From a virus: a stretch of DNA of 64,000 nt. This document shows positions 1,134 to 60,294 of the stretch, in pieces. A model generated the notes under the pieces. The model saw only the letters and a program-made list of their open reading frames with translations. It was not told the origin of the DNA and searched no databases. Position numbers and translations under genes: made by a program. The first letter of the stretch is position 1; every line of letters begins with the position of its first letter. The stretch is taken from IMG/VR virus record IMGVR_UViG_3300049830_000142, positions 70,589 to 134,588 of that record; one strand, 5' to 3'.

Positions 1134-1736
1134 ATGGCCAGAGGTGACTACAGGTACGCAGGAATATATATAATTACTAACTTAGTAAACAGCAAAGTTT
1201 ACGTAGGTAGTAGTATAAATATAGCTGATAGAATTCATTGTCATCAGTCTCACTTCCGATCAAAAATTCATCATAACAAGCATTTATTGGCGGCAGTAAT
1301 ACAATACGGTATAGAAAATTTTAGTTTTGAGTTGTGGGAAAAATGTGATGTTAAGATATTACAAACCCGAGAAGCTTACTGGATTTCCGCATTTAACGCA
1401 TCTGATAAAGAATTTGGATATAACAATAGTACTGATACTAATTGTCCAGCCAGAGGAAGAAAACAGCCTAAGGAGGAAATACAAAGACGATTGGACAACG
1501 GTATACTGAAAACAAGAAAATTTGTTGATTCCATAGGCAAAATATTTGAAACTAATAATACTAAGAATTTTGCAGCAAAACAAAACTTAAAGTATGAGTC
1601 ATTAACATCTGTAGCCAATGGTAATAGATACTCATACTTAGGTTGGAGAGTAGCAACTAATAATACTATAGGAATACCCTATAAGGATATAAGAATCGGT
1701 AAACCTAAATTTGGTCGTAAAATACCTACATTATAA
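1134..1736 (+). CDS. GIY-YIG homing endonuclease
   Basis: GIYIITN..VYVGSS..R motif, E..WI, NGYN-like segment; AT/Lys-rich. Confidence 0.9.
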   Translation: MARGDYRYAGIYIITNLVNSKVYVGSSINIADRIHCHQSHFRSKIHHNKHLLAAVIQYGIENFSFELWEKCDVKILQTREAYWISAFNASDKEFGYNNSTDTNCPARGRKQPKEEIQRRLDNGILKTRKFVDSIGKIFETNNTKNFAAKQNLKYESLTSVANGNRYSYLGWRVATNNTIGIPYKDIRIGKPKFGRKIPTL

Positions 1737-6134: not shown

Positions 6135-8471
6135 ATGCCACAAGGACAACAAGAAGCAGGTAAGAACTACGCGCCCTATGTTAACAGTGACTTGTTCATA
6201 GGCACTGTAACTAGCTGTGACCCGGCAACGCATTGTGTAGTTGTATCTCCTGACGGTGAATCTGGACTACTCCATTATCAAGCCCACTGTTTAGCCAGCA
6301 CTTATTCTAGTGCTTTAGGTTTCGTAGAATCAATTTTGCCTGGCGTAGGTACTAGAGTACTATGCTTTGGTAGAGGTGACAGCACGGCAGTAATCGGTGC
6401 ATTTCCTAACCATGAAGCGCATGGAACGTTATCTGCCGCAGCGTTAGCGAACAAAACAGTATTAGCTTCATCAGAACCTATTAACGACTCTGTACATAGT
6501 TTTGGTTATGCCTCACACATCACTAAAGCGGCTGTACATAACAACAATCTTCCAACCGACACTATACAGGGTGAAAAAGTTATAGCCAACGAATTTGGTG
6601 TAATGATGGGGTTGTTCAAACTCTTTGCTACACTAAGAGCATCTGAACTCTCTCAAGTACAATGTCATTTTTTAGATGACTTAGTACGTATCATTAGTCA
6701 TAACTTCCAGCACTATACAGCATTAGGGGAACTGAAAGTATTTCACGATGGCAAAGGCATACATTTGGAAGTCGGGGCAACACATAGCCCTGATGAAAGT
6801 ATGGGTAATGCACAAGATCCAAGCATTATTCAAATCGGTAAAGAAACTGATACGGACTATCAAAGGTTCTATAAGTTAAACGATTCTCAAGCAAACATGC
6901 TTGAGCGTATGAAACTCTTCGTAGGTAAACTCGGAGATTTTATTAACCTGCTCATAGTCAAGCCAGCTAACGTATCACATGCGTTTAATGGTAACGTACC
7001 TACACAACCTGACACTGGTCTTCTACAAGTCAAAGCTAGCTTAGACGGTACATTAGTTATACGAAGTGCTAACGGTATCTATTTGGAAAAGACTGACTGG
7101 ATCAGAGTACCGACTAGGATTAGGACAGCCGAAGATCCAAACGGTGATGATGGTGCTACACTAGGCTATACTGAGAAGACTGACTACACTTTTGACGAGA
7201 CTTACGTAACGGCTGATGCAGCTTATAACGATACTGCATTTCTCTATTACTTGCAGCTTAGGGATTACTTAGCCTACATAAACGAAGAGATCGGTTACAG
7301 TAATTTCAAGAAGCATGAAAAGGATTTCTACGTAAACGATGACATAGCTAAGGAAGCTGACTTAGCTAACATGACTTTTGTTGATCCTTTGACTGGTAGT
7401 ACATTTAAGAAAAACAAAAGTTGGATAGCATTGATGAAGAACGGTGGTGTTAGTTTAGCTGATGCTTGGGGAAGTTCTATCAATATGGAGGGTGGTAACA
7501 TTTACATCCAACCAGCCAAAGATCTCATAGTTCAGCCTAATCGTAACCTCATAGCTAAGGTAGGCAAGAACGTTAGTATTGCAGCACAGAACGAACTAGA
7601 CTTGAGCAGCACATCTGGAGGTCTAAGAGTCAAAACTAATCTAAGCCAGTATTTCTACAGTGATAAGAGCGGTATCGTATTGCATGCTAATGGTCCAGAC
7701 CTTTCAGAAAATACTTATCCTTATCCTGACAGTGATGCAATAGCTGGTGTAGCAGGTGTAGTGTTTAACGCACCTAAATCATCTGTTAGTGCCTATGGTC
7801 AGCAAGTTAATCTGCAAGCCAAGTTTCAATTAGTAGAACAAGCCGCTGAGATCATTAGTCATAGTACATCCAGGACTCGTATACTAAGCGATCAACAGGC
7901 ACTAGTTTCCGCTCCTTTTGCGGGGGTCTTCGCTAAGCAAGAGCTGACTATCTTTAGTGATGGCGGTTGCATAGCCATGGGTCTAGGCAGCACTACCGTA
8001 GGCTTAGAAGGACAAGTTACAGGTATTGTGAACTTTATGGGAGGACAGATTCCTGTAAACGGATACATCAAGTCCTCAGACCAATTTATTACCGACATTA
8101 AGAAAACAGAAAAAGATGTCAACGATTTCAAGCCTGCTGAAGTTCTGCAAGTATTTCAGAGCAAGGACGATTTCAATTTACTTCAATTTAAGTTCCTTCC
8201 TACTTCATTATACAACCTCGAAGACTCGGACGTTATCCCACAAACCCTATCACAACAGAACGACACAAAGATGAACGGATTGTTGCAGAAATGGGTTGAA
8301 ACTCCGATCAATGATTCATATCCTTATCCAGGCAGTGACAAAGCAGAGTCTTATGTTACCGCAGAGAGCAAGAACGTTTCTGACATGACCTTGGCTAACA
8401 AAGCCGTGGATCTGTTGAATAACTCAACACTAGCTGTCAAAAACGTGTTCTCGGATTACAAGTCATACTAA
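6135..8471 (+). CDS. Putative baseplate hub/central spike (gp5/VgrG-like)
   Basis: N-terminal OB-fold-like GTV..D...V.V..LPGVGTRV segment then beta-repeat region; position in tail module. Confidence 0.55.
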   Translation: MPQGQQEAGKNYAPYVNSDLFIGTVTSCDPATHCVVVSPDGESGLLHYQAHCLASTYSSALGFVESILPGVGTRVLCFGRGDSTAVIGAFPNHEAHGTLSAAALANKTVLASSEPINDSVHSFGYASHITKAAVHNNNLPTDTIQGEKVIANEFGVMMGLFKLFATLRASELSQVQCHFLDDLVRIISHNFQHYTALGELKVFHDGKGIHLEVGATHSPDESMGNAQDPSIIQIGKETDTDYQRFYKLNDSQANMLERMKLFVGKLGDFINLLIVKPANVSHAFNGNVPTQPDTGLLQVKASLDGTLVIRSANGIYLEKTDWIRVPTRIRTAEDPNGDDGATLGYTEKTDYTFDETYVTADAAYNDTAFLYYLQLRDYLAYINEEIGYSNFKKHEKDFYVNDDIAKEADLANMTFVDPLTGSTFKKNKSWIALMKNGGVSLADAWGSSINMEGGNIYIQPAKDLIVQPNRNLIAKVGKNVSIAAQNELDLSSTSGGLRVKTNLSQYFYSDKSGIVLHANGPDLSENTYPYPDSDAIAGVAGVVFNAPKSSVSAYGQQVNLQAKFQLVEQAAEIISHSTSRTRILSDQQALVSAPFAGVFAKQELTIFSDGGCIAMGLGSTTVGLEGQVTGIVNFMGGQIPVNGYIKSSDQFITDIKKTEKDVNDFKPAEVLQVFQSKDDFNLLQFKFLPTSLYNLEDSDVIPQTLSQQNDTKMNGLLQKWVETPINDSYPYPGSDKAESYVTAESKNVSDMTLANKAVDLLNNSTLAVKNVFSDYKSY

Positions 8472-8472
8472 T

Positions 8473-8973
8473 ATGGAAGAAACTAAAGTAGAACAGACAG
8501 TCGTTGATCCTCTTAAAGAGGTCAAGGCTAAGTTAACGGACGCGGAGAAGGAATCCTTCTTCAAAGCATTTTTAGCAGATGCACCTTATGAAGCTGAGGA
8601 ATCTCTCTTCAACGGTAAGCTCATCGTCAAGTTTAAGACGCTAAGCGTAGGTGAAAATAACTTGGTGATGCAGCAGTTACAGTTTGATAGAGACAACGGT
8701 ACAGCTAAGAATAGTGATGCCTATCTTATTCAAGTCATCCAATATAGGATAGCGGCTAGCATGACACATTTCGACAAGCAACCGTTCGCTATTGAGATCA
8801 ACGAAGAAACAAGTCCTACCGACGTAAAGGCTGGACAGACTTATCTTATCAAGAGATTGGAAGTAATGAAGGAATGGCCTACATTTAAGGTCAGCTCTTT
8901 GACAGATGCTTTCAACAGGTTTGAGAAGAAGGTCAGGGCTTTGACAGAGGAGAGCTTCAAAGAAAATTTTTAA
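8473..8973 (+). CDS. Tail assembly chaperone (gpG-like)
   Basis: Upstream of tape measure; ends in slippery A AAT TTT TAA. Confidence 0.75.
   Translation: MEETKVEQTVVDPLKEVKAKLTDAEKESFFKAFLADAPYEAEESLFNGKLIVKFKTLSVGENNLVMQQLQFDRDNGTAKNSDAYLIQVIQYRIAASMTHFDKQPFAIEINEETSPTDVKAGQTYLIKRLEVMKEWPTFKVSSLTDAFNRFEKKVRALTEESFKENF
8964..8970 (+). promoter_or_regulatory. Programmed -1 ribosomal frameshift site A AAT TTT
   Basis: X XXY YYZ heptamer; -1 frame open (KFLTGRRVNALTRGY) into ATG 9009. Confidence 0.8.
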
Positions 8974-9337: not shown

Positions 9338-12300
9338 ATGGACGACCACTTTATAAATTTGCCGGGTGAGATGCCTAATACGCTAGACCCTTACGCAGGT
9401 CAGCACCAGTATTCTCCTAACCCATTCATGGGTGGTGGTAGGATGCCGTTCGGTATTGGTAGCATCTTGATGTCGGCCTTCGGCAATAAGATGTGGCCTA
9501 TCCCAATGCCGGGCACATCACAAGGTGTTTACGATGCGGTATGGCAGCGTGAGCATGATATGCAGATGATGCATGTCGCTCGTCAAACGGTGTCTAGTTG
9601 GTATCCATTTCAAAACATGGGTGGCATGAACCAAAACAGCATGCTCACTCAAGCAGTATCTTCTTTGATGAGTCAGCCTGATGGTTTGGCTGCTACTATT
9701 ATGAGCCCAGTGCTGGGAGGTAATCCTGTGCAAGCTCAGATGGCCGCCTATGCTAATCTACAAGGTATTGGTGCCGCTGGTCTAGGAACTGTCGCTGGTG
9801 TGACAGGAACTCAGATTAGAGGTGGTGCCGACGCATTTGAATCCCAATTCTATAACCAGGACATCAAGAAGATCAATAAAGATTTGGGTGACAAAAAGAA
9901 AGCCGCAATATTGGCCAACATTAAACGAGCTAATATCTTAGGTTTGTCAGATCAACAAGGCACTGACCTATTCAATGAAAGCCGTAACAATGAGATTGTT
10001 CCCGGCACTACAGCCTATAGTAGGATTAACAGAGCTGGTATTACACTAGACGGTCTACAAAGCAAGATCTCTAGTATGGAAAGTACTGGCGATATCCAGA
10101 AGTATTTAGAAGGTGCTGACTTAGGTGACATGACTAGCAGGTTCAAGGAGCAGTTCGGCTCTGCTGTATCAGGTAGTGCAGAAGACCGTGCTAAAGCTTT
10201 TGCTGAAGGAATATCTGGTGTAGGTGAAAGTTTGAAAGGTAAGACGTCAGATGTTCAGGCTGTTGTAGACGCTCTCAAACAACTGCAGACCGAAGGCAAG
10301 TCTAAGGAGCAAGTCATGAAAGACGTAGATGCTCTTAAAGATAAATTTAAGTTAGATGACTCTGCAGCTGACATAGTTAGAAAAGGTGTAGAGGAAGGTA
10401 TGCAGAAGGGTAGTCAGATACTTTCTAAAGCTGTGGGAGAGAAACTACAGCAGAAGCCTATTAGCGAAGCTGCAAAAGATATTCAGTCTGTGGCTAACTC
10501 AATGCTGATGCAGAAGATCACTAGAGGTGTCAACTATGCTAATACATTAGGATTCAACTACGAAGATTTAGTAGGTGCTAGAGATGAAGCTATTAGACAA
10601 AGGTTTGTTGGTGGCCCTGGTACTGACTTAAATAAACTAAGCGCTCAATTTGGTGGTGGCCAGATGGTTAAGACAATGGACGCTATGAGAAGCGCTTTTG
10701 GTAATGACCTCACCGGTAAACAGCTTATACAAAAAGCAAATGAGTTCGTAGGTTATAGCAATTATGATCTTAACAAGACCGAAGATCAGAAGGACTTGGA
10801 AGATAATTTAAGAACATTGAAAGCTACAGCTAGAGTTACTGGTATTGACTTTGACACTATCATGAATGTTGAAGGTCAGGCTCAGAATGCTGCAGCTATG
10901 AACCCTTTGACCGCTCACTTAGGCGGTCGTGAGCTAGGTCCGATGGTTAGCCAAGCTGCACAACAGGTATTAGCTATGTCATCTCAGATGTCTAGTGAAG
11001 ACGTCAGATACTTGGGTGGGCCTGCCAACATGTTTAGAAGTGCTGTCGAAGGGCAGATCTTAAGCTCTCAACAGCCTATCGCTACACAACTAGCTGCGAT
11101 GGATACTTACTTTGTAGGAAATGACAAAGCTCAAGAAGCTGTCAGAAGCTATGCTAAGAACGGCGATATGACGGCCGGCGGTTGGGCTAGATTCCAGGAA
11201 GACTTGGCTAATCAAACTGGTGTTAACGGCGTAGACTTACAACGCTACTCACAGTATAATCCGTCAGCTACTAGAAAAGGATTCCAGGGAGAAGGTGGAG
11301 CGGCATTTAGAAAAGCTGGTGGGCAAGCTACGGTACAGGGAATTCTACAAGGCTTAGACTTTTATTACGGTGGTGGTGAAGCTGGTGCCTCGATGAAGGA
11401 TGAAGCTCAGAAGCTTATCCAAACAGGTCAATTCGGAAAGCTATTGACTGACAAGCGCTTTAATATGGCTGAGTTTGCTCCAGCTTGGGAAGATGCTTTG
11501 AAGAAGAACTACCTCTACGATTACGCTGTCGGAAACAACAGCAAATTCAAAGCTGCTGATGACCAGGTTCAGGAGAGAGTCAAATCTTCTGTAGAGCTAG
11601 AGAAGATAGTATCCTACAAAATGGGTAAGCTAAACGCTCCAACTATACAACGTGTCGTTCAGGCTATTGCTAGTGGTGACATGAGCCGAGATGGTCTTAA
11701 ACCCTTAGCTTCAGCACTAGGCATTGGTGATGAATTTTTACAGAACGCAGATCTAGTCAAGAACACAGACTATATCCAGAAGATGACAGCAGCTGGTAGT
11801 GTTGAAGACTTGTTAAATATATCTCAGGATGTCTTACATAAGTCCGGTGTATCTACCCAGACTACTAGAGAGTTAGGTGCATTCAGTGAGTTAGCTAAGA
11901 AGTACAATATCAATAGTGATGACGTAACGAAGATTAGAGCTAGTGGTGGTACTCTGAATGAGCTAAAAAAGATCATTGGTAATAAGTCTGCCATGACTAC
12001 TGAAGATCAAGCCAGAGAATTTTATAGGTTAGCCGGTACAGCTGATCAGCAAATGGCTTCAGGTGGTTTGCTTGATAAGTACTCAGGAGATTTCTCCAAA
12101 GATAGTTTGACGGCAGCTATGAAGAAGCCACTAGTTGACCAGGTTGTTGACTATGTCGGTGGTACTGATGAACGCGCTAAAGCCTTCAATGATTGGATGC
12201 AGAAGACTGGTGAACAGCTAAGCAGCGGTCAAGTGATGGAAGGAGATGCAGGCAGTGCTAACCGAGTAAAACTAGGTAAGGCTATCCAAGCATTGGGTGG

Positions 12301-12688
12301 TAAGAAAGGTGAAACTGAAGGCAAAGTATTTGATGTTTTGGCTGGTGTCGCTGGTCAAGGTGACTCTGGATTCCAGAACATAGATGGTACTTATAAACTT
12401 ACTGGTGCATTAGGCCAGTTTGGTCAGGCAGTCTATGGTAAGGAAGAGACATTCACTTCTGAGGATGATGCAAAGAAAGCTGTTAGTTCTCTAAGAGCTA
12501 TCGCTGATTCAGACTCAACAGTAACTGGCATCGTGTCTGAAAAGGGTGCGGCTGACGAGACTGTGAAGCAAATGAAGGAGCAATCTGAGGCAGCAATCAC
12601 TACAGCTTCAGGCGTAACAAAGATCTTAGGTAGCATCACTGAAATGACAGCTGCACTAAACCGTATCAACGGAACACTAAGCAAATAA
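9338..12688 (+). CDS. Tape measure protein
   Basis: 1116 aa Ala/Gly/Gln-rich helical protein after chaperone pair. Confidence 0.85.
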   Translation: MDDHFINLPGEMPNTLDPYAGQHQYSPNPFMGGGRMPFGIGSILMSAFGNKMWPIPMPGTSQGVYDAVWQREHDMQMMHVARQTVSSWYPFQNMGGMNQNSMLTQAVSSLMSQPDGLAATIMSPVLGGNPVQAQMAAYANLQGIGAAGLGTVAGVTGTQIRGGADAFESQFYNQDIKKINKDLGDKKKAAILANIKRANILGLSDQQGTDLFNESRNNEIVPGTTAYSRINRAGITLDGLQSKISSMESTGDIQKYLEGADLGDMTSRFKEQFGSAVSGSAEDRAKAFAEGISGVGESLKGKTSDVQAVVDALKQLQTEGKSKEQVMKDVDALKDKFKLDDSAADIVRKGVEEGMQKGSQILSKAVGEKLQQKPISEAAKDIQSVANSMLMQKITRGVNYANTLGFNYEDLVGARDEAIRQRFVGGPGTDLNKLSAQFGGGQMVKTMDAMRSAFGNDLTGKQLIQKANEFVGYSNYDLNKTEDQKDLEDNLRTLKATARVTGIDFDTIMNVEGQAQNAAAMNPLTAHLGGRELGPMVSQAAQQVLAMSSQMSSEDVRYLGGPANMFRSAVEGQILSSQQPIATQLAAMDTYFVGNDKAQEAVRSYAKNGDMTAGGWARFQEDLANQTGVNGVDLQRYSQYNPSATRKGFQGEGGAAFRKAGGQATVQGILQGLDFYYGGGEAGASMKDEAQKLIQTGQFGKLLTDKRFNMAEFAPAWEDALKKNYLYDYAVGNNSKFKAADDQVQERVKSSVELEKIVSYKMGKLNAPTIQRVVQAIASGDMSRDGLKPLASALGIGDEFLQNADLVKNTDYIQKMTAAGSVEDLLNISQDVLHKSGVSTQTTRELGAFSELAKKYNINSDDVTKIRASGGTLNELKKIIGNKSAMTTEDQAREFYRLAGTADQQMASGGLLDKYSGDFSKDSLTAAMKKPLVDQVVDYVGGTDERAKAFNDWMQKTGEQLSSGQVMEGDAGSANRVKLGKAIQALGGKKGETEGKVFDVLAGVAGQGDSGFQNIDGTYKLTGALGQFGQAVYGKEETFTSEDDAKKAVSSLRAIADSDSTVTGIVSEKGAADETVKQMKEQSEAAITTASGVTKILGSITEMTAALNRINGTLSK

Positions 12689-12689
12689 T

Positions 12690-13181
12690 ATGGCTGCATA
12701 CTACTACACTCTCTCAAGTTCTAACAGTGACGTGTTCCATGGTAACCAAGTGGTTCACCACGGTATCAATATTCCTTTCTTGGAGAACCTTATCAATGCT
12801 AACTCCATGGTTATCGTGAATGAGGTGACTATCCAGAACAGGGATACCGTTCAATACTTTTTGACTTTCAATGATGTAGTCTCATGGTTCTACTTTGGTA
12901 AAGGTCTAGGCTCTCTTTCAGTGAGCGGTGTGGTCTTGGCTGGTTGTCATAGCGCCGCCAATGATTTTCCAGGTGTGCAGGACCTATACAACGCTATAGG
13001 TAAGATCAGAGGTAAGGCACAGACTATTTTATTTGGTGGGTTCTCATTCAAGTGTGTTCTATCAAACTATACTTTCAGGGCTAATGCAGATGAAGCTTCG
13101 GTCAATATGATCGACTTCAATCTACAGATGGAAATCGTCGACCATCAGATCCCTGGTCCTTCCTATAACCCTAGCTGCTAA
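12690..13181 (+). CDS. Putative tail tube initiator
   Basis: Tube-like beta protein directly after tape measure. Confidence 0.5.
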   Translation: MAAYYYTLSSSNSDVFHGNQVVHHGINIPFLENLINANSMVIVNEVTIQNRDTVQYFLTFNDVVSWFYFGKGLGSLSVSGVVLAGCHSAANDFPGVQDLYNAIGKIRGKAQTILFGGFSFKCVLSNYTFRANADEASVNMIDFNLQMEIVDHQIPGPSYNPSC

Positions 13182-14893
13182 TGAATTCAAATATCAGCAT
13201 TGAGCTAACCACAACAGACGCTGGTTTGGCTACACTAATCAAAAACGTACGTATTACCGGTGCTACGTTATCCTATGGCATCAATAAGCTGCCTATAGCT
13301 CACGTACATATTGATACAACAGTTAGCGATGATTTGACTAGCTCACTACAGATCCTTTGTGACTTCGATAAGTTTAGAAGAAAAACACTGTCGTTGACTG
13401 TCAAGACCGGTGGGCTAGTATATGACGCAGGTTGTCTAGAGTTTGACGGTATACTAGACGGTATTAGCATCTCACAACAACCTGGAGGTTTGAGCGCTTC
13501 ATTAGTCATCAAACACCAATTTGTATTACTGAATGAGGTCTACCCTAGATTGCTTGGTCTAAGCGCTGGTAGTTCCAATATGTTCTCAGTAATGAGACCT
13601 ATACTCTATGATCCGAACCAGTTTGGTCCTGGCTCAGAAAATAACCATTTCCTCATACCTGACATGCAGTTGTATGGATTGATCACTGGTAAAGACCCGA
13701 ACAACAAAGTTAACACTGGTCTACCTCTGATACCGTTCATCATCGAAGTATTCAAGGCTGTAGTAAAAAATCAATCACTCTACAACATCGGTCCTAACAC
13801 GCCAGCATTCCAAAGTATCAGTAACGCTTTGCGAGATGTGATCAAAGAGCAACAGATCAACGCAGATAAGACTGGTGAGCTATTTAAGCTAGTAATGAAA
13901 CTACTTGGACAGGTCAACACAGAGTATAGCAGTCTGTTATCACTGTCAGGTAATGACCATTTGCTTAGCGCAGCTAGCCCAACGATCGCAGCTAAAGTAA
14001 TAGGTGACATAGCTCAGTTAGACGACACTATCTACAATTCAATGGTTCGTTACGTAGGTCAATATGGTTGCTGTTTTGTAGTGTCTAACGACACTGCTTA
14101 TGTAGTGCCTGATGCATCTTTTCTTAGAGTTGAAGTAGACCCATCATTGATTAAAAACAGTAGGTCTTTACAAACTAATATAGCTTACCCAGCAGACTAC
14201 GAAACTTTCTCCTTCAACGATACTGGTGAGAACACTATCAAAGGTGTATATGTTGTTCCTGAACCACTAGGTATGAACGGTACCTGGGCTGTGGGTGGTA
14301 TCAATGTCATGAGTGGTAGATACGTTGATCCTAATCCAGGTGTAAAGGGAAACATTGTTGTAAAGACTTTGCCTCAAATAGCTTGTTCTTATATTAGCAG
14401 GATAGCTTCACAAGGTAGTATGGGTGTACAGAAGATAGTCCATACTGGTAACAGCTTGATTGATGGAGCAATTGATACTGTAGAAGCTTATGCTAGTATG
14501 CAGCTTCACAAAATACAAACTGCTTTAGAGTATGGACAGATGCAGGCGTTCATCAATGCCTGGGCTCAGTCTGAGTATTGCAGGATCAAGTACGAAGATA
14601 GAACTGGTTATCTATCAATGCCATTTAACAACAACTGGGTGCCTGGAGCTCCTGGTGCTGCGCTAGCCAAACATCCTGGTACTTGGGTCCAGTTCTACGT
14701 CACTGACGTAACACATACTTTCAACCTAATGCCTAACAACTCCGGCACAGCTACTACCAACGTATCATTCAAAGGTGGTAGACCAGGACTTGTAGCAGGA
14801 TATACTGGACTAACGACTGTCCCTCTGTATAATTACAGTTACGCGCTTAGTCAGAACTTTGCAGACCAGTTCTTGGCTGACATAACACCATGA
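13181..14893 (+). CDS. Putative baseplate hub protein
   Basis: 570 aa; N-terminal hub-like pattern; synteny. Confidence 0.55.
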   Translation: MNSNISIELTTTDAGLATLIKNVRITGATLSYGINKLPIAHVHIDTTVSDDLTSSLQILCDFDKFRRKTLSLTVKTGGLVYDAGCLEFDGILDGISISQQPGGLSASLVIKHQFVLLNEVYPRLLGLSAGSSNMFSVMRPILYDPNQFGPGSENNHFLIPDMQLYGLITGKDPNNKVNTGLPLIPFIIEVFKAVVKNQSLYNIGPNTPAFQSISNALRDVIKEQQINADKTGELFKLVMKLLGQVNTEYSSLLSLSGNDHLLSAASPTIAAKVIGDIAQLDDTIYNSMVRYVGQYGCCFVVSNDTAYVVPDASFLRVEVDPSLIKNSRSLQTNIAYPADYETFSFNDTGENTIKGVYVVPEPLGMNGTWAVGGINVMSGRYVDPNPGVKGNIVVKTLPQIACSYISRIASQGSMGVQKIVHTGNSLIDGAIDTVEAYASMQLHKIQTALEYGQMQAFINAWAQSEYCRIKYEDRTGYLSMPFNNNWVPGAPGAALAKHPGTWVQFYVTDVTHTFNLMPNNSGTATTNVSFKGGRPGLVAGYTGLTTVPLYNYSYALSQNFADQFLADITP

Positions 14894-15528
14894 AACACGA
14901 CAAACTAATAGAAGACCACAAAAAGCTCATAGCCTATGAGGCTGGCAAATACAGTAAATTCGTGCCCTATGACGTTGTGTTAGCTGAGGCCTATAAACTG
15001 GCTTGGAAAGCTGCTGAAGGGTTTGATCCTAAAAAGGATACTAAGTTTAGCACTCACCTCACTAACCAGCTTAAGAAGCTGAGCCGTATTTCAACGATGT
15101 ATGGCAGTACTGTAAGATTGCCGGAAAACAAGCAATTTAAGCTACAGCATATCAATAATGCTGAAAAGGAGTTGGAGGATCAGCTAGGTAGGCCACCGTC
15201 AGCATTGGAGACTAGTGAGTATACTCACATACCACTAGTACACTTAAACAAGATTAAGCAGGGTAGAGCTCACGAAGTCAATATAAGCTCTCTACAACAT
15301 ACTCCAGTATTCGTTAATAATACGAATGACGACTGGCTACATTTCGTGTATCACGATCTAACTGATATAGATCGTATTATTTTTGAGCACAAGACTGGGT
15401 TCAATGGTAAAGAAGTGTTAAACAACGAAGCAATCGCTAAACTACTCAACATATCACCTAGTGCAGTTGGAAACAGAGCTAAGATGATAACAGACAAAGT
15501 TCAGAAGGGTTGGGAAGGTGATGACTAA
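14890..15528 (+). CDS. Phage sigma-70-family RNA polymerase sigma factor
   Basis: Region 2 (LWKAAEGFDP..TKFSTH-like), TVRLP, LGRPPS region 3, region 4 HTH. Confidence 0.85.
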   Translation: MKHDKLIEDHKKLIAYEAGKYSKFVPYDVVLAEAYKLAWKAAEGFDPKKDTKFSTHLTNQLKKLSRISTMYGSTVRLPENKQFKLQHINNAEKELEDQLGRPPSALETSEYTHIPLVHLNKIKQGRAHEVNISSLQHTPVFVNNTNDDWLHFVYHDLTDIDRIIFEHKTGFNGKEVLNNEAIAKLLNISPSAVGNRAKMITDKVQKGWEGDD

Positions 15529-16036
15529 GGAAGAGCGCCAGAACTATAATAGGGCTTACAGAAATAAGCATAAAGAAGAATTAGATCGAAAATCTAAGGC
15601 TTATAGGTTAATCTATAATAAAGAACATAGAGAAGAGATACGTAGTCGAAATAGGCTATGGAAAGAAAAGAATAAAGATAAATGTAGAATATCAAATACA
15701 GCGTATGTAAAGGCTAGGATAAAAATTGATCCAACATTCAAGCTACTACGATATGCACGTACTCGAATCTATATTGCTTTGAAGAGACAATTAGCTGGTA
15801 AAGAGTTATCAACGTTAAATTTAACTGGTTGTTCAACTGAAGATCTAAAGTCACATATTGAGAAACAATTTAAGGAAAACATGGCTTGGACAAACTATGG
15901 TACTTGGCATGTTGATCATATCAAACCTTGTTGTAAATTTGATTTGTCAAATCGATTAGAGCAACAAAAGTGTTTTCACTATTCTAATTTACAACCACTG
16001 TGGGCAAAAGATAACTTAGAAAAACGAGGAAAATAA
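15518..16036 (+). CDS. HNH homing endonuclease
   Basis: M.W.NYG.WHVDHIKPC..FDL....Q..CFHYSNLQPLW..DNL. Confidence 0.9.
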   Translation: MMTKEERQNYNRAYRNKHKEELDRKSKAYRLIYNKEHREEIRSRNRLWKEKNKDKCRISNTAYVKARIKIDPTFKLLRYARTRIYIALKRQLAGKELSTLNLTGCSTEDLKSHIEKQFKENMAWTNYGTWHVDHIKPCCKFDLSNRLEQQKCFHYSNLQPLWAKDNLEKRGK

Positions 16037-16440
16037 TGGCTGACAAGACATACAAAGATCATGCTGAAGGTGTCAGAGGTTGGATGAGTGAGACGGCTGA
16101 CGCTGAACTTACTGACCCAGGTTCAAGGAAGTGGTGTATCTTAGAGTTGACAAGTTTAACTCCTAGTGAAGTGGGCACTTACTTTAGTAGTGCAAAACCG
16201 AACCAAGATTTCAAAGATGAAGTAGACAAGGATCAGGTAACTGGTATCCCGGTCGCACAACATCAGATTGAGTCAGACCAGTTGTATTCTTTGGCTAAGT
16301 GTATGGCTTACCGCCATCAACCTAGACTAAGGCATTACAGGGATGACATAGAGAACAAAGATATCAGGACTAGGACGTCTATCGCCTTTGCTTTGGCGAA
16401 GATGAACCTGTTAACTGATTCAATGAAGAATAGCACATAA
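16036..16440 (+). CDS. Hypothetical protein (baseplate operon)
   Basis: 134 aa ORF coupled to neighbours. Confidence 0.55.
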   Translation: MADKTYKDHAEGVRGWMSETADAELTDPGSRKWCILELTSLTPSEVGTYFSSAKPNQDFKDEVDKDQVTGIPVAQHQIESDQLYSLAKCMAYRHQPRLRHYRDDIENKDIRTRTSIAFALAKMNLLTDSMKNST

Positions 16441-16883
16441 TGGCTATACAAGGAACATCAACGGATTACACTGGCAGGCTCAGGGATATTTACATCTCTG
16501 GCACTCTAAACCCATTGTCAACCGCTACGCAAACAGTGCACTATAGTTTTGGCAAGCCTAGCAAGTTTGTCGCTGGTGTGCAGAAGTTGATTCAGAGATA
16601 TTTAATTTCTTTGGTCAACTCAGGATTCGTTGAACAGCTGCAATCAATTAGCGGTAGCAACGTCTATACTGCTAAGAAGCTGTTCGGACTATACAACGCT
16701 GAGGTAGTAGACTCTTTTAGGAATTATCAGAACAGCAATCCTTCAACTTTTTTGGACGAACAACTTGATACTGTACAGTTGACTAATTTGACTAGTACAG
16801 GAGCTAGTGTAAACATTTCATTGCAGTTGAATACTAAAGCAGGCAGTAGCGTAACTTTCTTGTTACCGTTACCATTAAATTAA
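16440..16883 (+). CDS. Putative gp25-like baseplate wedge/sheath initiator
   Basis: 147 aa directly before baseplate J; GVQKLIQRY segment. Confidence 0.6.
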   Translation: MAIQGTSTDYTGRLRDIYISGTLNPLSTATQTVHYSFGKPSKFVAGVQKLIQRYLISLVNSGFVEQLQSISGSNVYTAKKLFGLYNAEVVDSFRNYQNSNPSTFLDEQLDTVQLTNLTSTGASVNISLQLNTKAGSSVTFLLPLPLN

Positions 16884-16884
16884 T

Positions 16885-18474
16885 ATGAGCGAGACCGCAT
16901 CACAAACGTTGGCAAGACTAACCGCCTTTATTCAGGCGAACGCACCTACCATAGATCTATCTCCTGGCAGTGTACTGAACGAATTGATACTTGGCCTAGA
17001 AACACAAATACAGAACCAAGTGTATAATGACATTAACGCCATTTCACAAGGTAACGCCATCAGTTTTGCTTTGGCTAGTTTAGCTGACACTTACTCACCC
17101 ATCATCGACAACATTGCTAGCAACTACAATGTTACTCGAACTGCCGGTGCTTACTCTGTCGGAAACATCAAGGCGTATGTAACGTCAAACTCTGCAACCT
17201 ATACACTACCTTCCGGAACGTCATTCAATCAACCTGCATTAGGTTACACTTACCAGACTACGGCTCCCATCTCAATCACAAGCTTGTCATATAGCTCAGA
17301 AGTGAGTGGCTATTCAATCATTGTACCAGTCACATCTACTGACATTGGTCTGCATACTATTTTGACTAACGGTGCTCCATTTGAACTGGGTACTGGTTCA
17401 GCTATTCCAGGTTTTGTACAAGCCTCAGCCTACGGTTCATTCTCAGCTGGTGTAAACGTCGAGACTGATAGAAAACTCATCACAAGATTTAGATCAGGCT
17501 TGGCTACGTCTAACCTATTGACAGCAGCAAGCATCAACAATTATTTGACTAACAAGTATCCTAGCTTTAGTGGTGCGTATATCGCTGATGCTACTTCACC
17601 TGTCAACAACCGTTGTCAGAATAACTTGCTTAACCTTAAGATTCCTGGTGCTGTAGATGTATATGTAAAAACAAACGTAAACATCCCACAAGTCCCTGTA
17701 TCTTTGCCAGGTACATATCTAGGTTCTACCGATTTTTCAGCTAACACTTGGCAAGTCACTTTAGACAACAACGTTTCTGGTGGTTCTTATCTAGGCTTCT
17801 ATCGCGTCGTTAGTGTGCAAGACGCTACCAGTGCTAACCTAGTCAACTTACCTTTCAATGTCACCTACAGCTATGACAGCCTAGCTTCCAACGTAATCAC
17901 TGACGCAGCACAAGCTAGATACTCACCCTATCAAACAGCAACGATCAATATAGGTTATACTGGTGTGACCTCACCTAGCGGTAGACAGTTTTTGGTAACT
18001 GTATTGGCTCCATACCAGTTACGTGCAATCCAAGAGACTTTCTTAGATAACAACAATCGAATCCCGGCAGCAGACTATCTGGTAAAAGGTGTAGTGCCTT
18101 GCATGGTTACTATGTCTCTATCGTTAGTTGCGAACAAGACCGGACCTTTGGTTGATACAGTTGCGTTACAACGTGACTTATTCAACTATGTCAACAGCTT
18201 AGGTATTGGCGAGTCTATCGTCGTAAGTCAGATCGTAAACCTTTGTCACAAATATAACGTGGCTAGAGTAGATTTGCCTATCGTATTAAATGGTAGGATC
18301 TTGGCCCCATATAACACTACGGGCGCTGCTGATCAAGATATCTTCATTGAGGGTAACGACTTTCTGCAAATACCAGATTATGAGCAGTATGGTGTGACTC
18401 AAGACAACACCGCGTTTTTCCTTAACTATTTCACAGATAACGGCAAGCCTAACATCAACCTGTCTGTCAAGTAA
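16885..18474 (+). CDS. Baseplate J-like wedge protein
   Basis: DLSPGSVLNELI N-terminus; G...ETD....RFR motif. Confidence 0.8.
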   Translation: MSETASQTLARLTAFIQANAPTIDLSPGSVLNELILGLETQIQNQVYNDINAISQGNAISFALASLADTYSPIIDNIASNYNVTRTAGAYSVGNIKAYVTSNSATYTLPSGTSFNQPALGYTYQTTAPISITSLSYSSEVSGYSIIVPVTSTDIGLHTILTNGAPFELGTGSAIPGFVQASAYGSFSAGVNVETDRKLITRFRSGLATSNLLTAASINNYLTNKYPSFSGAYIADATSPVNNRCQNNLLNLKIPGAVDVYVKTNVNIPQVPVSLPGTYLGSTDFSANTWQVTLDNNVSGGSYLGFYRVVSVQDATSANLVNLPFNVTYSYDSLASNVITDAAQARYSPYQTATINIGYTGVTSPSGRQFLVTVLAPYQLRAIQETFLDNNNRIPAADYLVKGVVPCMVTMSLSLVANKTGPLVDTVALQRDLFNYVNSLGIGESIVVSQIVNLCHKYNVARVDLPIVLNGRILAPYNTTGAADQDIFIEGNDFLQIPDYEQYGVTQDNTAFFLNYFTDNGKPNINLSVK

Positions 18475-42720: not shown

Positions 42721-42927
42721 TTACGAACCGTAATATACTTGGTTTCTACTACGTTCTTGTCTGTCAGAATCTTCTTGTTTCTTCGCTTCATTTGGGTTCC
42801 ATGCGTTTATTGGTTGAGGGATGTGTCGAGGCTGCATACCGATGTGTTGCCAATACTGTCCGGTAAACAACAGCTCTCGTCCACAGTCTTTGCATGTGGA
42901 TCTGTTGCCGAATATTTCTTCATTCAT
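42721..42927 (-). CDS. Small Zn-binding hypothetical protein
   Basis: Start trimmed to MNEEIFG (ATGA overlap with cryptic tag); CKDCG..W.H..H. Confidence 0.55.
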   Translation of the reverse strand: MNEEIFGNRSTCKDCGRELLFTGQYWQHIGMQPRHIPQPINAWNPNEAKKQEDSDRQERSRNQVYYGS

Positions 42928-42950
42928 AGTTGTGGGTCTAATCTTCGTTC
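42924..42950 (-). other. Cryptic C-terminal tag ERRLDPQL* in -1 frame of 42956-43216
   Basis: GAA CGA AGA TTA GAC CCA CAA CTA TGA. Confidence 0.85.
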
Positions 42951-42955
42951 TTCTG

Positions 42956-43216
42956 TTACACCTGATCTGCTTTGTGGTCTGACAATACAGTAGACCAAGC
43001 ATCTATCAAGTCATTTCGTATTTTTTCTGCTACCTTGCTCATGTCATATCGTTCAGTGCTGCTAACATAGTCTGTCAAACTAATGTCTTTGCCATCTACC
43101 TCTACCGTAAACTTTCTAATAGATGGATTATAACAAGCCGGACCAACGTTCTTAAGTTGCTGTAGGTTAAGTGTGTAACCTACGAAGTTGTAGAGTGGTA
43201 GTTTTAATTCACTCAT
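42956..43216 (-). CDS. Hypothetical protein, apparently frameshifted before its tag
   Basis: LPLY..LIDAW shared with 41620-41973; tag lies in -1 frame just past stop. Confidence 0.65.
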   Translation of the reverse strand: MSELKLPLYNFVGYTLNLQQLKNVGPACYNPSIRKFTVEVDGKDISLTDYVSSTERYDMSKVAEKIRNDLIDAWSTVLSDHKADQV

Positions 43217-55171: not shown

Positions 55172-55495
55172 AGACTACATTAGGATCGACTTTAAGGTTT
55201 AGTTCTTTCATCTCATCAAACACTTCGATAACGTGCTTAAAACGTTCGGCATTGAATGAGCGATAGCCACCCTCAACACTCTCGACGCTTAGTCTTACAG
55301 TATCCTCGGGTTTGATGTTTAGATCTTTGATAGCTTTCTTGTTAGTTACAGCTAAAAAGTCATTGGTTCGTTGATTAGGTTAGGAGTAGTGCTTCCTAAG
55401 TTTTGGTGATTGGAGACAGAGACAGATATTAGTTGAGAAATGCTGCTTCGAGCAAGTGTTCTGTCAGGTGTAGTTATGCAGATGTAATAGATCAT
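55161..55495 (-). pseudogene. Frameshifted small gene
   Basis: ORF 55495-55352 ends ATG ACT TTT TAG; start-less 73-codon -1 frame (FLAVTNKKAIKDL..VVYVN*) continues to 55161. Confidence 0.45.
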
Positions 55496-55768: not shown

Positions 55769-55972
55769 TTAGCCCCTAGCTACTACGTAAGCTAAGTTAT
55801 TTGCTTCGCTGATAGAAAGGATTACCCAGTTATTTGTTTCGTTTTTACCAAAGTTCACTGGTGTCCCCTGTTCCGCCATGATCTTAGCTCTAGTAACTAA
55901 TTCAGCTGGCGCGTTGTTCAAACCCTCTAGCCAAGGGAGTGTCGTTATCGTTTCTGTGATCTTATATGTCAT
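55769..55972 (-). CDS. Hypothetical protein
   Basis: 67 aa. Confidence 0.5.
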   Translation of the reverse strand: MTYKITETITTLPWLEGLNNAPAELVTRAKIMAEQGTPVNFGKNETNNWVILSISEANNLAYVVARG

Positions 55973-56858
55973 TCTTGATCTCCTTTGATTCTGCGCGAGC
56001 TAGCAAGTCAGCAAGATCATCCTGTTCACTGATATTGAACTTTACTGAACCGACTACGTCATGAAGCCCACCAATACTAGACGTGGTTGTAGTAGGCATG
56101 GTTGATGTAGATCCAGCGCTGATAGACCTAGCATCATCAGTGATAGAGCAAGCAAACATCATATTGGTGTCGGCTACGCTACGTTTCCTTAGAACGTTGT
56201 TTGACAATGACCTGAAAGCAACTTCATAACCTGCATTCGTAGCATTGTAAGTCATTGCCTGTCCTTTAGAGACTTTGTATTTGCTGCTCTCTTTGATAGC
56301 GTCTTGATTTGCGCCTAAGTAGATCACCTGTCTGTTCTTAGCCTGCACTTCTTCGATTAGCTTCGCCAAGTCTTCATTAGAGTTGTTGCGGCTCGTGTTC
56401 TCCTCACCATCCGTAAGGCTAACATAAATCACTCTACCAGGCTTTTCAGCTTCATTGAGTGTATTGATGAATGCTTCTGCTTCACGAATAGCTTTGCAGA
56501 ATGCGTCTAACAATGGAGTCCCACCATTAGGAGTGTAGTCAGCTGCTGTTAATTCAGCCACCTCATTCAGGTCCTTATGATCAATGAACTTGTGATAGCC
56601 GAACCAGTCTCCAGGCTCACCAGTCCTTGGAGCGCTGTACTGCCCATCTGAAGCGAAGAATACGAGGTTAAGCGTGCACTTCAAATTAGGAGTAGACTCG
56701 CTGAAGTCTGCATCTACGCTAAGTTGACGGTCTTGGTTAGGCAAAGCTTTCTGTTCACGAATGAACCTGTTGATACCGTCTATTGTAGCCTGTTTAGTCG
56801 GCTCCATGCTTCCGCTAGCGTCAACTAACAGAACTATGTGTGTGTAATTTGGATTCAT
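55962..56858 (-). CDS. von Willebrand factor A (vWA) domain protein
   Basis: MIDAS DASGS, GGTPLLDA, TDGEEN. Confidence 0.92.
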   Translation of the reverse strand: MNPNYTHIVLLVDASGSMEPTKQATIDGINRFIREQKALPNQDRQLSVDADFSESTPNLKCTLNLVFFASDGQYSAPRTGEPGDWFGYHKFIDHKDLNEVAELTAADYTPNGGTPLLDAFCKAIREAEAFINTLNEAEKPGRVIYVSLTDGEENTSRNNSNEDLAKLIEEVQAKNRQVIYLGANQDAIKESSKYKVSKGQAMTYNATNAGYEVAFRSLSNNVLRKRSVADTNMMFACSITDDARSISAGSTSTMPTTTTSSIGGLHDVVGSVKFNISEQDDLADLLARAESKEIKNDI

Positions 56859-57109
56859 AAATGGGGGTCTAATTGTCTTTCGTTTGTTGTGTCGTCCAGT
56901 CTACCTGGATTAGGATTGGTGTTAAGAGTGACGGTTATGTATTCCATTGGTTGTTGCATCTGGATATTGACGTCAGCTCTAATTGTGTTGTTTTCTCTGT
57001 CTATAGTAACGTTGTTTGTTTGAACACTAGCACCAACGTAAGGAGTCATGTTCTCTCTTATCATTTGTTCTATTCTACTTACTTGTAGCTGTGTTTCAGG
57101 AGCAGGCAT
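56855..57109 (-). CDS. Hypothetical protein, tag ERQLDPHL; sheath-C/gp25-like segment; upstream in-frame MCP-like segment
   Basis: Tag; IRADVNIQMQQPMEYITVTL; frame open 29 codons upstream of ATG. Confidence 0.7.
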   Translation of the reverse strand: MPAPETQLQVSRIEQMIRENMTPYVGASVQTNNVTIDRENNTIRADVNIQMQQPMEYITVTLNTNPNPGRLDDTTNERQLDPHL

Positions 57110-57436
57110 TATACGTTCAGCAAAACTGCTTTCACGCAGTCTAGCTCTTAAATAATCCTGTGCTGCTGATATAGCGTCGCGTGGAGCTTCTATAGACTAT
57201 GCCCTCTTGTTCAGTCCTCCTATTTACTGCGGCCAATCTTTCAACATGTAATCTAAGCTCACGTAACTCTCTTTGTAAGTTAACGATGTCTATGCTCTTT
57301 TGATCATTTGCTTGTTGAAGGTATGCGACTCTTTCTTCTAAAGTAGGATTGTGTTCTAAATGTCTGCTAGTACATCAGCATCATCAGCTTCAACCCTACC
57401 AGATCCCATTCCAAATAATCCGTCTAAGATACTCAT
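57110..57436 (-). pseudogene. Interrupted 5' region of 56855-57109 (three joined frames)
   Basis: 26-aa ORF from ATG 57436, start-less coiled-coil frame (-1), then return to first frame. Confidence 0.45.
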
Positions 57437-58311
57437 ATTGTTTGGTCTAGGTTACGATCACCAGTCTCATGTCTAACATTAGGGGCTGGTTCTCTTGTTA
57501 CGGTTGGATGTCTTTCTGTTACACTACCTACATGAAAGTCACTAGCTATAAATTCGCTACCACGATTAGTATTAGCCCTGATCCTAACTTCAGTCTCACC
57601 ATAAGCGTTGATGGCTTCACCAAGTGTCGAAATTGGAGTAGCTTGGCGTACCCTAGACGTATCATTAGCGGCTTCAATCATCGCTCTAACTCGGTCAAGT
57701 TGTCTCTCGTTTTCACTTTCAGAAGCTGATCTAGCTATTTGAGTAGCAGTAACAGCCTCTTGAACTGCTTGCGCCATAGGACTCATTCCAGGAACAGTTT
57801 GTGGACCGTGTCTAGAACTTAGTGCACCTAGAGTCATTGCTTCGCTATCCCTAACTGCATCAGCACTAGTTCTAACTACGCGAGCTCTATCTCTTACCTG
57901 TTGTAGAACTTCACGGCGCTGTGTGTCATTATTAACTTCAGCTCTAAGCCTATTAATTTCATCACGCATCTCACTCAAATGCCTGGCTGTGTTGGCATCC
58001 ATTTGTGAGAATATGTTGCTGACAGTTTGGCTTAAGTCAGTTATACGCCTGCTCAAACTCTCAGTAATAGGTGTTAGTATTGGCTGTGGAGGTAATGCTG
58101 GTGCTGGCATTTGTAGAGCTGCACCAGATGATCCTTCTACTATTTCTTCAATCGGTCTAGGATCAGACTCGATTGATTGCATCATCTCATTTATCTCATC
58201 TATCCCTGCCTCTGGATAGGGGACACCCGGAGTTGAACGACATGAGTTCAACAGCTTGAGGCCCCATCCTATCAAGATGTGGCCTATTTTTAATCTGAGG
58301 CTTCTAAACAT
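57433..58311 (-). CDS. Low-complexity/coiled-coil protein, tag variant DRNLDQTI
   Basis: 292 aa; N-terminal amphipathic segment; tag variant. Confidence 0.7.
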   Translation of the reverse strand: MFRSLRLKIGHILIGWGLKLLNSCRSTPGVPYPEAGIDEINEMMQSIESDPRPIEEIVEGSSGAALQMPAPALPPQPILTPITESLSRRITDLSQTVSNIFSQMDANTARHLSEMRDEINRLRAEVNNDTQRREVLQQVRDRARVVRTSADAVRDSEAMTLGALSSRHGPQTVPGMSPMAQAVQEAVTATQIARSASESENERQLDRVRAMIEAANDTSRVRQATPISTLGEAINAYGETEVRIRANTNRGSEFIASDFHVGSVTERHPTVTREPAPNVRHETGDRNLDQTI

Positions 58312-58324
58312 AATTTATTTGTTG

Positions 58325-59779
58325 TTAATTGAAATAAAACGAGATTGTCTCTTTGATACCATCCTTGGATAGTACTAAGCAGTTCTGTCTCGCTCTACTA
58401 TGCAAACCTAGGTTGTCAGCATAGCGGTCTCCTGATACACAGCTACCAAAGATAACGTGCTCGAAACCTCTCATCTCCTCTTGTAAGAAGCGATGACGGT
58501 CTCCAGTTAGCATTAGTTTACTCTTAGCTCCCTGTAATATCTCTGGGTGCTCCATGAATAGGGCTTGAACATATGCTTCTTTAGGAGCTCCACTAGTAGG
58601 CATGATCGATTTTGCGAAATCTGATGCGCCGTGGTCCATAAGTATAGCAGTCGTTCCTACTCTAAAGCATCCTTGTCTAGACTTGAATAGGTTGAACTTG
58701 ATTCTAGGTTCATTCCTAAAGTAAGTCTGTATAGTCTTGAATAGTATCCAGTCTCCTACACCAGCATGGTTTCCCTTTACTGCATAGACTGTTACTTTCT
58801 TGAACATAGTAAGCAGGTTAAAGAAGAAATCATTCAAGCTATTCAATGCTAGCTCAAACTGTTCCTCTCTAAGCAAATCAGATTCCAATGGAGTGCCTTT
58901 GACAGTAAAGCCAGACAATCCATGTAGAATATCCCCTAAACTGCATACCACAACTTCATTGAATGGTAGTTTACGATTGTTTACTTCGTCATAGATCTGA
59001 CAAAAGTAACTATCCATAATGTCTTTAATTTTCTCACTATTGAAATCACTTCCAGAATAGAGCTCTTCTGAATTAGCTCTGCCTCCGAAATGTAAATCGC
59101 TCAAACCAATCAACAAAGTCTCATCCTTAGTTTTAGGACTACCTTTATAGATGATTGGTTTGAATGGTCTAGGCGTGTACTTCTCAATAACGCGCATAAA
59201 TGGATCTAGCTTAGCAGCTTCAAACAATCTCCAGCTTTCTGCATCTGCTTGAGTGCTTTTCCAATCTGCATGCTCTAATTCCTGTTGTAGCTCAGTGCGT
59301 CTAGTCTGCAATACTCTGTCAATTGCTTCCTTATCCTTTTTCTGGATAATCTCTTCAGTAGTAATCGGTACTGTGTCATGAGTCCAACCCATGATACGAA
59401 AGTACTCCACTACCCATTCTCTGCGCATCTTGTATAGTCTAGCTATCTGCGCTATGCTTTTCTCTCCACCCTGCCAATTAGAGTAAGCCGCTAACATCGC
59501 TCTGTGTTGATCACCGGGGCATACATAATCCCTACCATAGCTCTTTAATGGAACGATGTATTTATCGTTGAGCTCATTGTAGGTGTAGCCGTTTTGCTGA
59601 ACTACCTTGTCATTAGCTATGGATGGCAATGGTAAATTATTGGCCATCTTGTTGTATATTGCTTTAGCCTGTGCTTTATCACAGCTAAATTGTGCTTGTA
59701 GATAAGTGATGAAACCCTTCTTTGCACGTTTAAGCTTGATTGCGTTTGCTCTGATCGATTGGTATTGTTCGTTGGTCAT
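58325..59779 (-). CDS. Calcineurin-like metallophosphoesterase with N-terminal extension
   Basis: SDLHFG, LGDILHG, GNH, HG, GDRH motifs. Confidence 0.85.
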   Translation of the reverse strand: MTNEQYQSIRANAIKLKRAKKGFITYLQAQFSCDKAQAKAIYNKMANNLPLPSIANDKVVQQNGYTYNELNDKYIVPLKSYGRDYVCPGDQHRAMLAAYSNWQGGEKSIAQIARLYKMRREWVVEYFRIMGWTHDTVPITTEEIIQKKDKEAIDRVLQTRRTELQQELEHADWKSTQADAESWRLFEAAKLDPFMRVIEKYTPRPFKPIIYKGSPKTKDETLLIGLSDLHFGGRANSEELYSGSDFNSEKIKDIMDSYFCQIYDEVNNRKLPFNEVVVCSLGDILHGLSGFTVKGTPLESDLLREEQFELALNSLNDFFFNLLTMFKKVTVYAVKGNHAGVGDWILFKTIQTYFRNEPRIKFNLFKSRQGCFRVGTTAILMDHGASDFAKSIMPTSGAPKEAYVQALFMEHPEILQGAKSKLMLTGDRHRFLQEEMRGFEHVIFGSCVSGDRYADNLGLHSRARQNCLVLSKDGIKETISFYFN

Positions 59780-60266: not shown

Positions 60267-60294
60267 AATATAACACACTTCGACAGTGTGTCAA
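60267..60294 (-). promoter_or_regulatory. Sigma70-type promoter, leaderless, palindromic spacer
   Basis: TTGACA-16-TATATT, ATG 6 nt later; acacact-tcgac-agtgtgt. Confidence 0.7.

Follow-up and report, generated by a model that had tools for sequence, protein, structure and literature searches.

The baseplate protein gp25, its counterpart TssE (HsiF) and Domain 1 of the tail sheath are structural homologues that exchange strands, with TssE and gp25 accepting strand linkers from Domain 1 (PMC5813253). The gp25-like fold has also been reused as a regulator in E. coli IraD, an anti-adaptor of ClpXP (PMC6546054), and IraD is the one well-studied reuse of this fold outside contractile machines. Small proteins of mobile elements that block the virion assembly of competing phages are represented by Tab (PMC10884400) and Tai (PMC11364771), the former targeting the tape measure protein. 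Here we analyse an 84-codon open reading frame (ORF) on the minus strand of IMG/VR virus record IMGVR_UViG_3300049830_000142, together with a start-less extension upstream of it. The stretch analysed, referred to as the window, is the last 64 kb (64,000 nt) of this 134,588-nt contig, for which completeness is estimated at 62%. A sequence-only reading had described the extended frame as a mosaic of virion-protein-like segments ending in a tag; this structural description is supported, and extended, by profiles of the phage's own major capsid protein (MCP) and of tail sheaths.

We consider it about an even call that the ORF belongs to an orphan gene of virion-like pieces, now interrupted, whose product is a competitive binder addressed by its tag. 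The gene would sit in a hypervariable slot of an early operon coupled by ATGA overlaps, and the tail of its product would comprise three parts: a helix copying the most conserved part of the MCP N-terminal arm (N-arm), now start-less; a reduced version of the 'handshake' subdomain at the C terminus of the phage's own sheath, a fold also present in gp25, TssE and IraD; and a disordered tail bearing an octapeptide common to a dozen early genes. Such a product would be, or would have been, a soluble module that binds other proteins. It would take up the surfaces offered by partners of the sheath/gp25 handshake domain, perhaps by those of the capsid N-arm too, and so compete for binding when virions are assembled or virion proteins recognised; the copy in this genome may be truncated or without activity.

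If this is correct, the phage recycled the strand-exchange domain of its sheath and a conserved capsid arm into a small tagged early protein, and a phage-borne tagged version of the fold would provide a way to regulate or sabotage virion assembly or to hide virion proteins from host sensors. It is quite unlikely, in our estimate, that the gene represents a widespread and undescribed class in large phages, of tagged early proteins built from conserved pieces of their own virions, which would compete for binding in one of two ways: by decoying host sensors of capsid and tail proteins, or by capping, and so poisoning, the assemblies of co-infecting relatives or of host contractile systems. Viewed by itself, the case amounts to one orphan gene that is partly broken.

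Capsid- and sheath-like segments

As had been claimed, the frame of the ORF is open for 29 codons upstream of its ATG, up to a TAG, and the capsid-like helix lies mostly within this extension (Table 1). The proposed match to MCP residues 37–50, with 8 of 14 identities, is present in the sequence. By BLASTP, the match to the MCP comprises 10 of 25 identities (26 bits), with an E-value of 2e-4 in the pairwise comparison and 0.04 against the 684 six-frame segments of the contig. The MCP itself shares 29–30% identity with its annotated counterpart in Salmonella phage Arash and with a Vibrio phage D69 protein, and in an alignment with these two its residues 26–51 form the most conserved stretch. 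The open frame agrees with this N-arm at seven invariant columns.

Hidden Markov models (HMMs) of the MCP family were built from 122 sequences, for which 120 further relatives had been collected, both at full length and for columns 20–56, which cover the N-arm. Against the 684 segments, the full-length model ranks the frame second after the MCP, with an E-value of 1e-4 (17.1 bits; next best 0.16), and aligns only positions 24–48. The N-arm model, whose column window was picked post hoc, gives 4e-8 (28.4 bits). Shuffled controls reach at most 14.4 bits with the full model (40 genome equivalents) and 12.2 bits with the N-arm model (400 genome equivalents), and among 1,304 real segments of related phages sequences other than MCPs score no higher than 6.3 bits. 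An hhalign comparison with the MCP gives P 1.9e-4. The profile search that had been put forward as a check on the capsid-like segment is thus significant with the family HMM. The conserved N-arm motif of the MCP group is present in the frame by family HMM and by invariant columns; the HK97-type capsid fold that follows the arm is absent from it by the full-length model. The frame shares 26 matching residues, including the seven invariant positions, with the N-arm of this Arash/D69-like, HK97-fold group, but it has the arm helix only, none of the capsid fold, and does not hold that helix within an intact ORF.

A recent DNA duplication of the 5′ end of the MCP gene was rejected. The matched 78 nt are 46% identical, with third positions near random, and the matched Ser and Arg codons are not interconvertible by one change. 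Since the matched codons are no recent DNA copy, the likeness was kept, or reached, at the protein level.

The second segment resembles the sheath. The reported match to the C terminus of the sheath (7 of 20 residues) is likewise in the sequence, and the likeness stands; its extent of 20 residues does not, as the ORF is a collinear miniature of the whole C-terminal handshake subdomain. In gapped Smith–Waterman alignment, residues 6–92 of the frame are collinear with sheath residues 334–468, about the last 135 residues of that protein, with a score of 77 against 43.7 ± 6.3 for shuffled sequences (none of 500 as high; z of about 5). In the alignment, the TPYVG loop of the ORF lines up with P-F-x-G, a loop invariant across the sheath family, and the terminal strand hairpins are paired with each other; a sheath helix of about 25–30 residues between loop and hairpin is missing from the ORF. 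In three gap regimes the sheath is the best of 683 other contig segments and the MCP second or third, and the sheath still ranks first when the 84-residue ORF is used alone. Across 1,304 real segments of related loci the highest score is 65.4, with the D69 and Arash MCPs in second and third place there.

Profiles point to the same region. A PHROGs search of the frame returns one match, to the C-terminal positions 447–485 of 489 in the tail-sheath family phrog_279 (library E-value 0.008; about 38 positions covered), and when this profile is run against the whole contig it matches only this ORF, with an E-value of 8.9e-4. An HMM of the phage's own sheath family (three sequences) has the ORF as its top non-self match (E 0.026), and hhalign against the sheath gives P 0.004. 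The profile search suggested for the sheath-like segment rises above chance against the genome, over a short span of the family profile. The full architecture of a polymerising sheath is absent, the frame having 84–113 residues against 469 and neither an N-terminal arm nor outer domains. Compared with the sheath C-terminal domain (Phage_sheath_1C, phrog_279), the ORF shares the collinear order, the loop and the terminal strand pair, but past the last strand it continues in a tagged tail of 20 residues, and its place is in an early operon.

The gene taken here for the sheath was scored as sheath at 0.96 from ESM language-model features (Phage_sheath_1/1C clusters), and in Arash, a myovirus, the homologous protein gp236 is abundant in virions (PMC10585845). 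The sheath of the present phage is itself undetected by Pfam and by phrog_279, though the latter detects the small ORF, and its PHROG matches are confined to an Ig-like insertion at residues 35–120.

Predicted fold

Single-sequence AlphaFold2 (AF2) modelling of the 113 residues predicts helices at 5–21, 23–29 and 36–54, strands at 57–66, 71–79 and 86–93, and a disordered tail at 94–113. Without the 29 upstream residues, the predicted template-modelling score (pTM) drops to 0.33, a weak hint that the upstream stretch is part of the modelled domain. In a scan of 48,161 PDB chains, the three top structures were the gp25-like 2ia7 (Z 7.8, 93 residues aligned), TssE (6gj1_D, 6.8) and IraD (6od1_B, 6.4); next came the phi812 sheath, together with many gp25 chains from baseplates. 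The top three scores lie below a Z of 8, a range that models lacking a true match often reach. The top rows of a Foldseek search of BFVD were baseplate wedge, sheath initiator and sheath proteins, and T4 gp25 aligned to the model with a root-mean-square deviation of 2.0 Å. GPW_gp25 and Sheath_initiator clusters are found among language-model neighbours that fall short of the trust threshold. No single line of fold evidence is strong; the sheath/gp25 group is where searches by sequence, language model and fold come together.

The low-confidence model resembles gp25, TssE and IraD (PF04965; PDB 2ia7, 5iw9, 6gj1, 6od1) in having three helices on an antiparallel sheet and a similar size. Unlike these proteins, the ORF has no sequence match to PF04965 or PF10934, and the strictly conserved EPRI loop of the family, between helix 3 and strand 1 (PMC6546054), is TPYV here. 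Nor does the ORF lie in a baseplate module beside a gp6/J-like gene, as gp25 does, but in an early operon; the Baseplate_J gene of this phage is located at 16885–18474, on the opposite strand, preceded by the genes of two small baseplate proteins (16036–16883). PF04965 gives no match with an E-value of 10 or below anywhere in the genome and also misses the phage's own baseplate protein, so this profile is blind in this lineage. Given the altered loop and the silence of both Pfam profiles, the predicted domain is best filed as sheath-Domain-1-like rather than as a member of the gp25 family. With IraD there is an example of this fold serving elsewhere than in the baseplate, in a small regulator that works by binding. 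Tab and Tai offer by analogy a precedent for the proposed assembly interference; they are encoded by prophages and satellites and are unrelated in origin, whereas the present phage looks lytic and its activity is inferred only.

Several observations weigh against the proposed binder, some of them also on the side of chance resemblance, under which this would be an early orphan gene of no special kind with a common layout of helix plus sheet, its likeness to virion proteins amounting to amphipathic-helix and β-hairpin patterns. The capsid and sheath matches are, as alignments, all short or gapped. In an all-against-all BLASTP run the MCP match falls within about ten chance pairs of 25–28 bits and the sheath match is non-significant (E 0.3–0.4), so that on BLASTP by itself the finding would pass for noise, and the hhalign probabilities are low for both the MCP (48%) and the sheath (8%). 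The confidence of the AF2 model is low to moderate (pLDDT, the predicted local distance difference test, 60.5; pTM 0.52), a best Z of 7–8 is typical of unmatched models, and the Foldseek E-values are 0.01–0.1. Pfam has no match for the frame, GPW_gp25 (PF04965) and Sheath_initiator (PF10934) included, and searches of NCBIfam, PADLOC, PDB sequences and PHROGs, phrog_279 excepted, give no meaningful match either. No homologue of the ORF was found by tblastn in 50,697 phage records or by a search of IMG/VR, and only the ORF itself was returned by a word-indexed search of 5.8 billion proteins and by a full HMMER search of 1.84 billion representative proteins. Conservation of the capsid-like segment in orthologues, to which the sequence-only reading had looked, thus finds no orthologue to bear on, and neither conservation nor selection can be demonstrated. 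The proposed binding function, moreover, is argued solely by analogy. What speaks against chance is that two independent profiles pick out this frame among the 684 genome segments, that controls with real sequences yield nothing comparable, that the matches coincide with invariant family columns, and that the three kinds of search all point to the sheath/gp25 group. We regard chance resemblance as unlikely.

Terminal tag and interrupted gene

That the ORF ends in a tag is confirmed: the octapeptide ERQLDPHL stands directly before the stop codon. Octapeptides of this type, [DE]-R-x-L-D-x-x-L, occupy the very end of 12 early genes, this ORF among them. All six Arg codons occur across the copies, as do several Leu codons; conservation is thus at the level of the peptide and not of the DNA, and the frame of the ORF was accordingly translated to its end, at least until recently. 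The TGA of the ORF (56857–56855) lies in an ATGA overlap with the ATG (56858–56856) of the following gene, which encodes a vWA protein. A second, degenerate tag-like motif precedes the tag, and a 78-codon protein of a related locus (L008) ends at the position equivalent to it (pairwise E 8e-6); this 27-residue likeness covers only the region just before the tag.

Upstream of the start-less extension, a 26-codon ORF begins with an ATG (57436–57434) that shares an ATGA with the stop codon ending the tagged gene before it. A start overlapping the end of a tag-like gene at 57436 matches the arrangement at 11 other tags. This 26-codon head and the 84-codon ORF share one frame (57436–57109 = 327 nt), in which the codon score of the head is positive. 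A scan of codon usage places the coding signal in this first frame over 57436–57365, in the −1 frame over 57360–57200, and in the first frame again from about 57190. The −1-frame stretch has no ATG, GTG or TTG before 57236 and a weak SlyX-type coiled-coil match.

The simplest reading of this anatomy is a single 582-nt gene broken by two changes, one −1 and one +1. The 84-codon ORF would then be the 3′ remnant of an orphan gene, early and accessory, of about 194 codons (minus strand, from 57436 to 56855), interrupted by two single-base changes, −1 within 57359–57374 and +1 within 57144–57196, so that the head, the coiled-coil-like middle and the tail would be read in different frames. The two frame changes leave the capsid-like helix without a start codon; the earlier caveat that this part has no ATG is therefore correct and stronger than it was put. 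Both facts, that the gene is interrupted and that its capsid-like helix is start-less, count against the proposed binder as well. So does the compatibility of the anatomy, taken alone, with a one-indel model in which an upstream gene ends at 57141 and the 84-codon gene is separate; two changes account better than this model for both the codon scores and the MCP match. Reading through all three pieces did not extend the MCP match.

Mechanisms that would restore expression across the breaks were rejected as unlikely. TAG recoding or suppression finds no tRNA genes in the contig, the first frame also contains a TAA, and TAG is rare: the 190 retained ORFs end in TAA (137), TGA (48) or TAG (4, of which two are on the sense strand), with one running off the contig end. 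Programmed frameshifting or bypass finds neither an X-XXY-YYZ slippery heptamer at either junction nor unusual RNA structure (z −1.05 for the fold of 57100–57440), and the gap between the two first-frame pieces is itself coding-like. No flanking repeats that would mark an insertion were found, and a promoter inside the gap is unsupported, sigma-70-like sites being no commoner than in shuffled sequence.

The long structural ORFs are open, with no sign of a break, and two other nearby accessory genes look frameshifted (55172–55495 and 42924–43216). That only accessory genes look frameshifted speaks for genuine mutations, or for variants in the population, rather than random assembly error. The same breaks suit a decaying relic, in which a patchwork of captured fragments would now be a functionless pseudogene and the 84-codon ORF its accidental remnant: two frame changes, a capsid-like part without a start codon, at least two further accessory genes that look frameshifted, and a slot that varies among relatives would all be expected of it. 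Against decay, the tag, the ATGA coupling and the domain core are intact, and the amino-acid likeness was kept despite randomised synonymous sites, which points to long selection before any recent break; the indels could, in addition, be assembly errors or minority variants. Decay into a relic seems unlikely to us.

In the first of the two neighbouring cases (55172–55495, minus strand), a 47-codon ORF starts by an ATGA overlap and ends at a TAG within ACTTTTTAG; after this TAG, a coding-like, start-less stretch of 70 codons in the −1 frame reaches the next gene.

The 26-codon head bears on one further alternative, that the original protein had a head-targeting leader and a capsid-like cleavage/arm module and was packed and clipped like the phage's other head proteins. 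The head does start with a hydrophobic-x-x-G-hydrophobic helix, loosely like the leaders of head-region proteins, and the capsid match begins where the proposed Lys-x-Ala cut site of the MCP lies. At that site, however, the ORF has Arg-Asp-Ala, no Lys-x-Ala occurs in any of the three pieces, the likeness to a leader is a five-residue pattern, and the gene lies in an early accessory operon outside the head module. We consider such head cargo highly improbable and retain the interrupted orphan gene with a tag-addressed product as the preferred reading.

Variable slot and operon context

The broken gene and the 292-codon orphan upstream of it, for which no phage relatives were found, fill a slot between the exonuclease gene and the vWA gene. 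We compared this slot with the loci around relatives of the exonuclease gene (L006, L007, L008 and L015); the closest relative of that gene, at 87% identity, is on a 4.6-kb contig. The vWA gene directly follows the exonuclease gene in L007 and is absent from L006. In L008 an unrelated 137-codon gene ending ERKLDFEL lies between the two, and two genes are found there in L015, one of 336 codons ending DRNLTPDL and one of 77 codons. The present gene resembles none of these occupants, and no homology among them was found. Because the contents differ with each relative, the locus is taken as a lineage-specific insertion in a variable slot, in agreement with the lack of any homologue among the 1.84 billion representatives.

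The relatives carry tags of their own, so the tag system is a feature of the phage group with a lineage-specific consensus. In L008 the ERKLDFEL end (gene at 8439–8852) stands directly before the vWA gene, and several ends of the L-x-D-M-x-L type occur further on (10217–15213); the DRNLTPDL tag of L015 belongs to the gene at 678–1688. In the window, the upstream 292-codon gene has, besides its own terminal tag, an internal NERQLD at 57694–57708 (minus strand) that is identical to the core of the tag studied here and may be the fossil junction of two fused tagged genes.

Table 1 Features of the locus and reference genes, in positions of the window
Feature	Position	Strand	Remarks
Annotated 84-codon ORF	56855–57109	−	TGA stop
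Start-less open extension, 29 codons	57110–57196	−	Same frame as the 84-codon ORF
Full open frame, 113 residues	56858–57196	−	84-codon ORF plus 29 upstream codons
TAG closing the ORF frame upstream	57197–57199	−	
26-codon ORF, probable original 5′ end of the gene	57359–57436	−	Ends at TAG 57361–57359
Coding-like, coiled-coil-like stretch	57200–57358	−	Readable only in the −1 frame (open 57144–57374)
MCP N-arm-like helix	57104–57181	−	Residues 6–31 of the 113-residue frame; straddles the annotated ATG
Core like the sheath C-terminal (Domain 1/gp25-type 'handshake') subdomain	56921–57091	−	Residues 36–92; one helix, TPYVG loop, three strands
phrog_279 match	56909–57022	−	
Degenerate second tag-like motif (G-R-L-D-D-T-T-N)	56882–56905	−	Just upstream of the tag
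Shared C-terminal octapeptide (ERQLDPHL)	56858–56881	−	On the tail predicted to be disordered
vWA gene	55962–56858		Other side of the slot
Upstream orphan gene, 292 codons	57433–58311	−	Tag-like end
Exonuclease gene	58325–59779		One side of the slot
MCP gene	101–1063	+	Matched N-arm, residues 26–51 (176–253)
Tail sheath gene	3953–5362	+	469 residues; matched C-terminal part ~4950–5356

The plus strand of the window carries the structural module, and the minus strand a long operon of small genes, many of them linked by ATGA stop–start overlaps. A near-consensus sigma-70-type promoter at 60294–60267 (minus strand; TTGACA, a 16-nt spacer, TATATT and an extended −10; 11 of 12 positions) is likely the start of this early operon, and it diverges from plus-strand genes that begin at 60714.

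Early expression from a strong host-type promoter would also suit an immune decoy, one of the roles that the sequence-only reading had put forward, that shows host sensors the conserved capsid arm and sheath end and thereby blunts abortive infection. The segments copied are those most conserved in two abundant virion proteins, and for that reason the most prone to being sensed; capsid-sensing defences such as CapRel are covered in a 2026 review (PMC13728456). On the other side, there is no known sensor, host or assay, the product matches no defence or anti-defence model, the capsid-like part is not contained in an intact ORF, and we found no published case of virion-fragment decoys in the literature. 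A decoy role is, in our view, very unlikely.

Two further features of the contig were noted. Most of its genes lack a Shine–Dalgarno sequence and have A/T-rich start contexts, and a GIY-YIG endonuclease gene (1134–1736, plus strand; Pfam E 1.2e-12) lies directly 3′ of the capsid gene.

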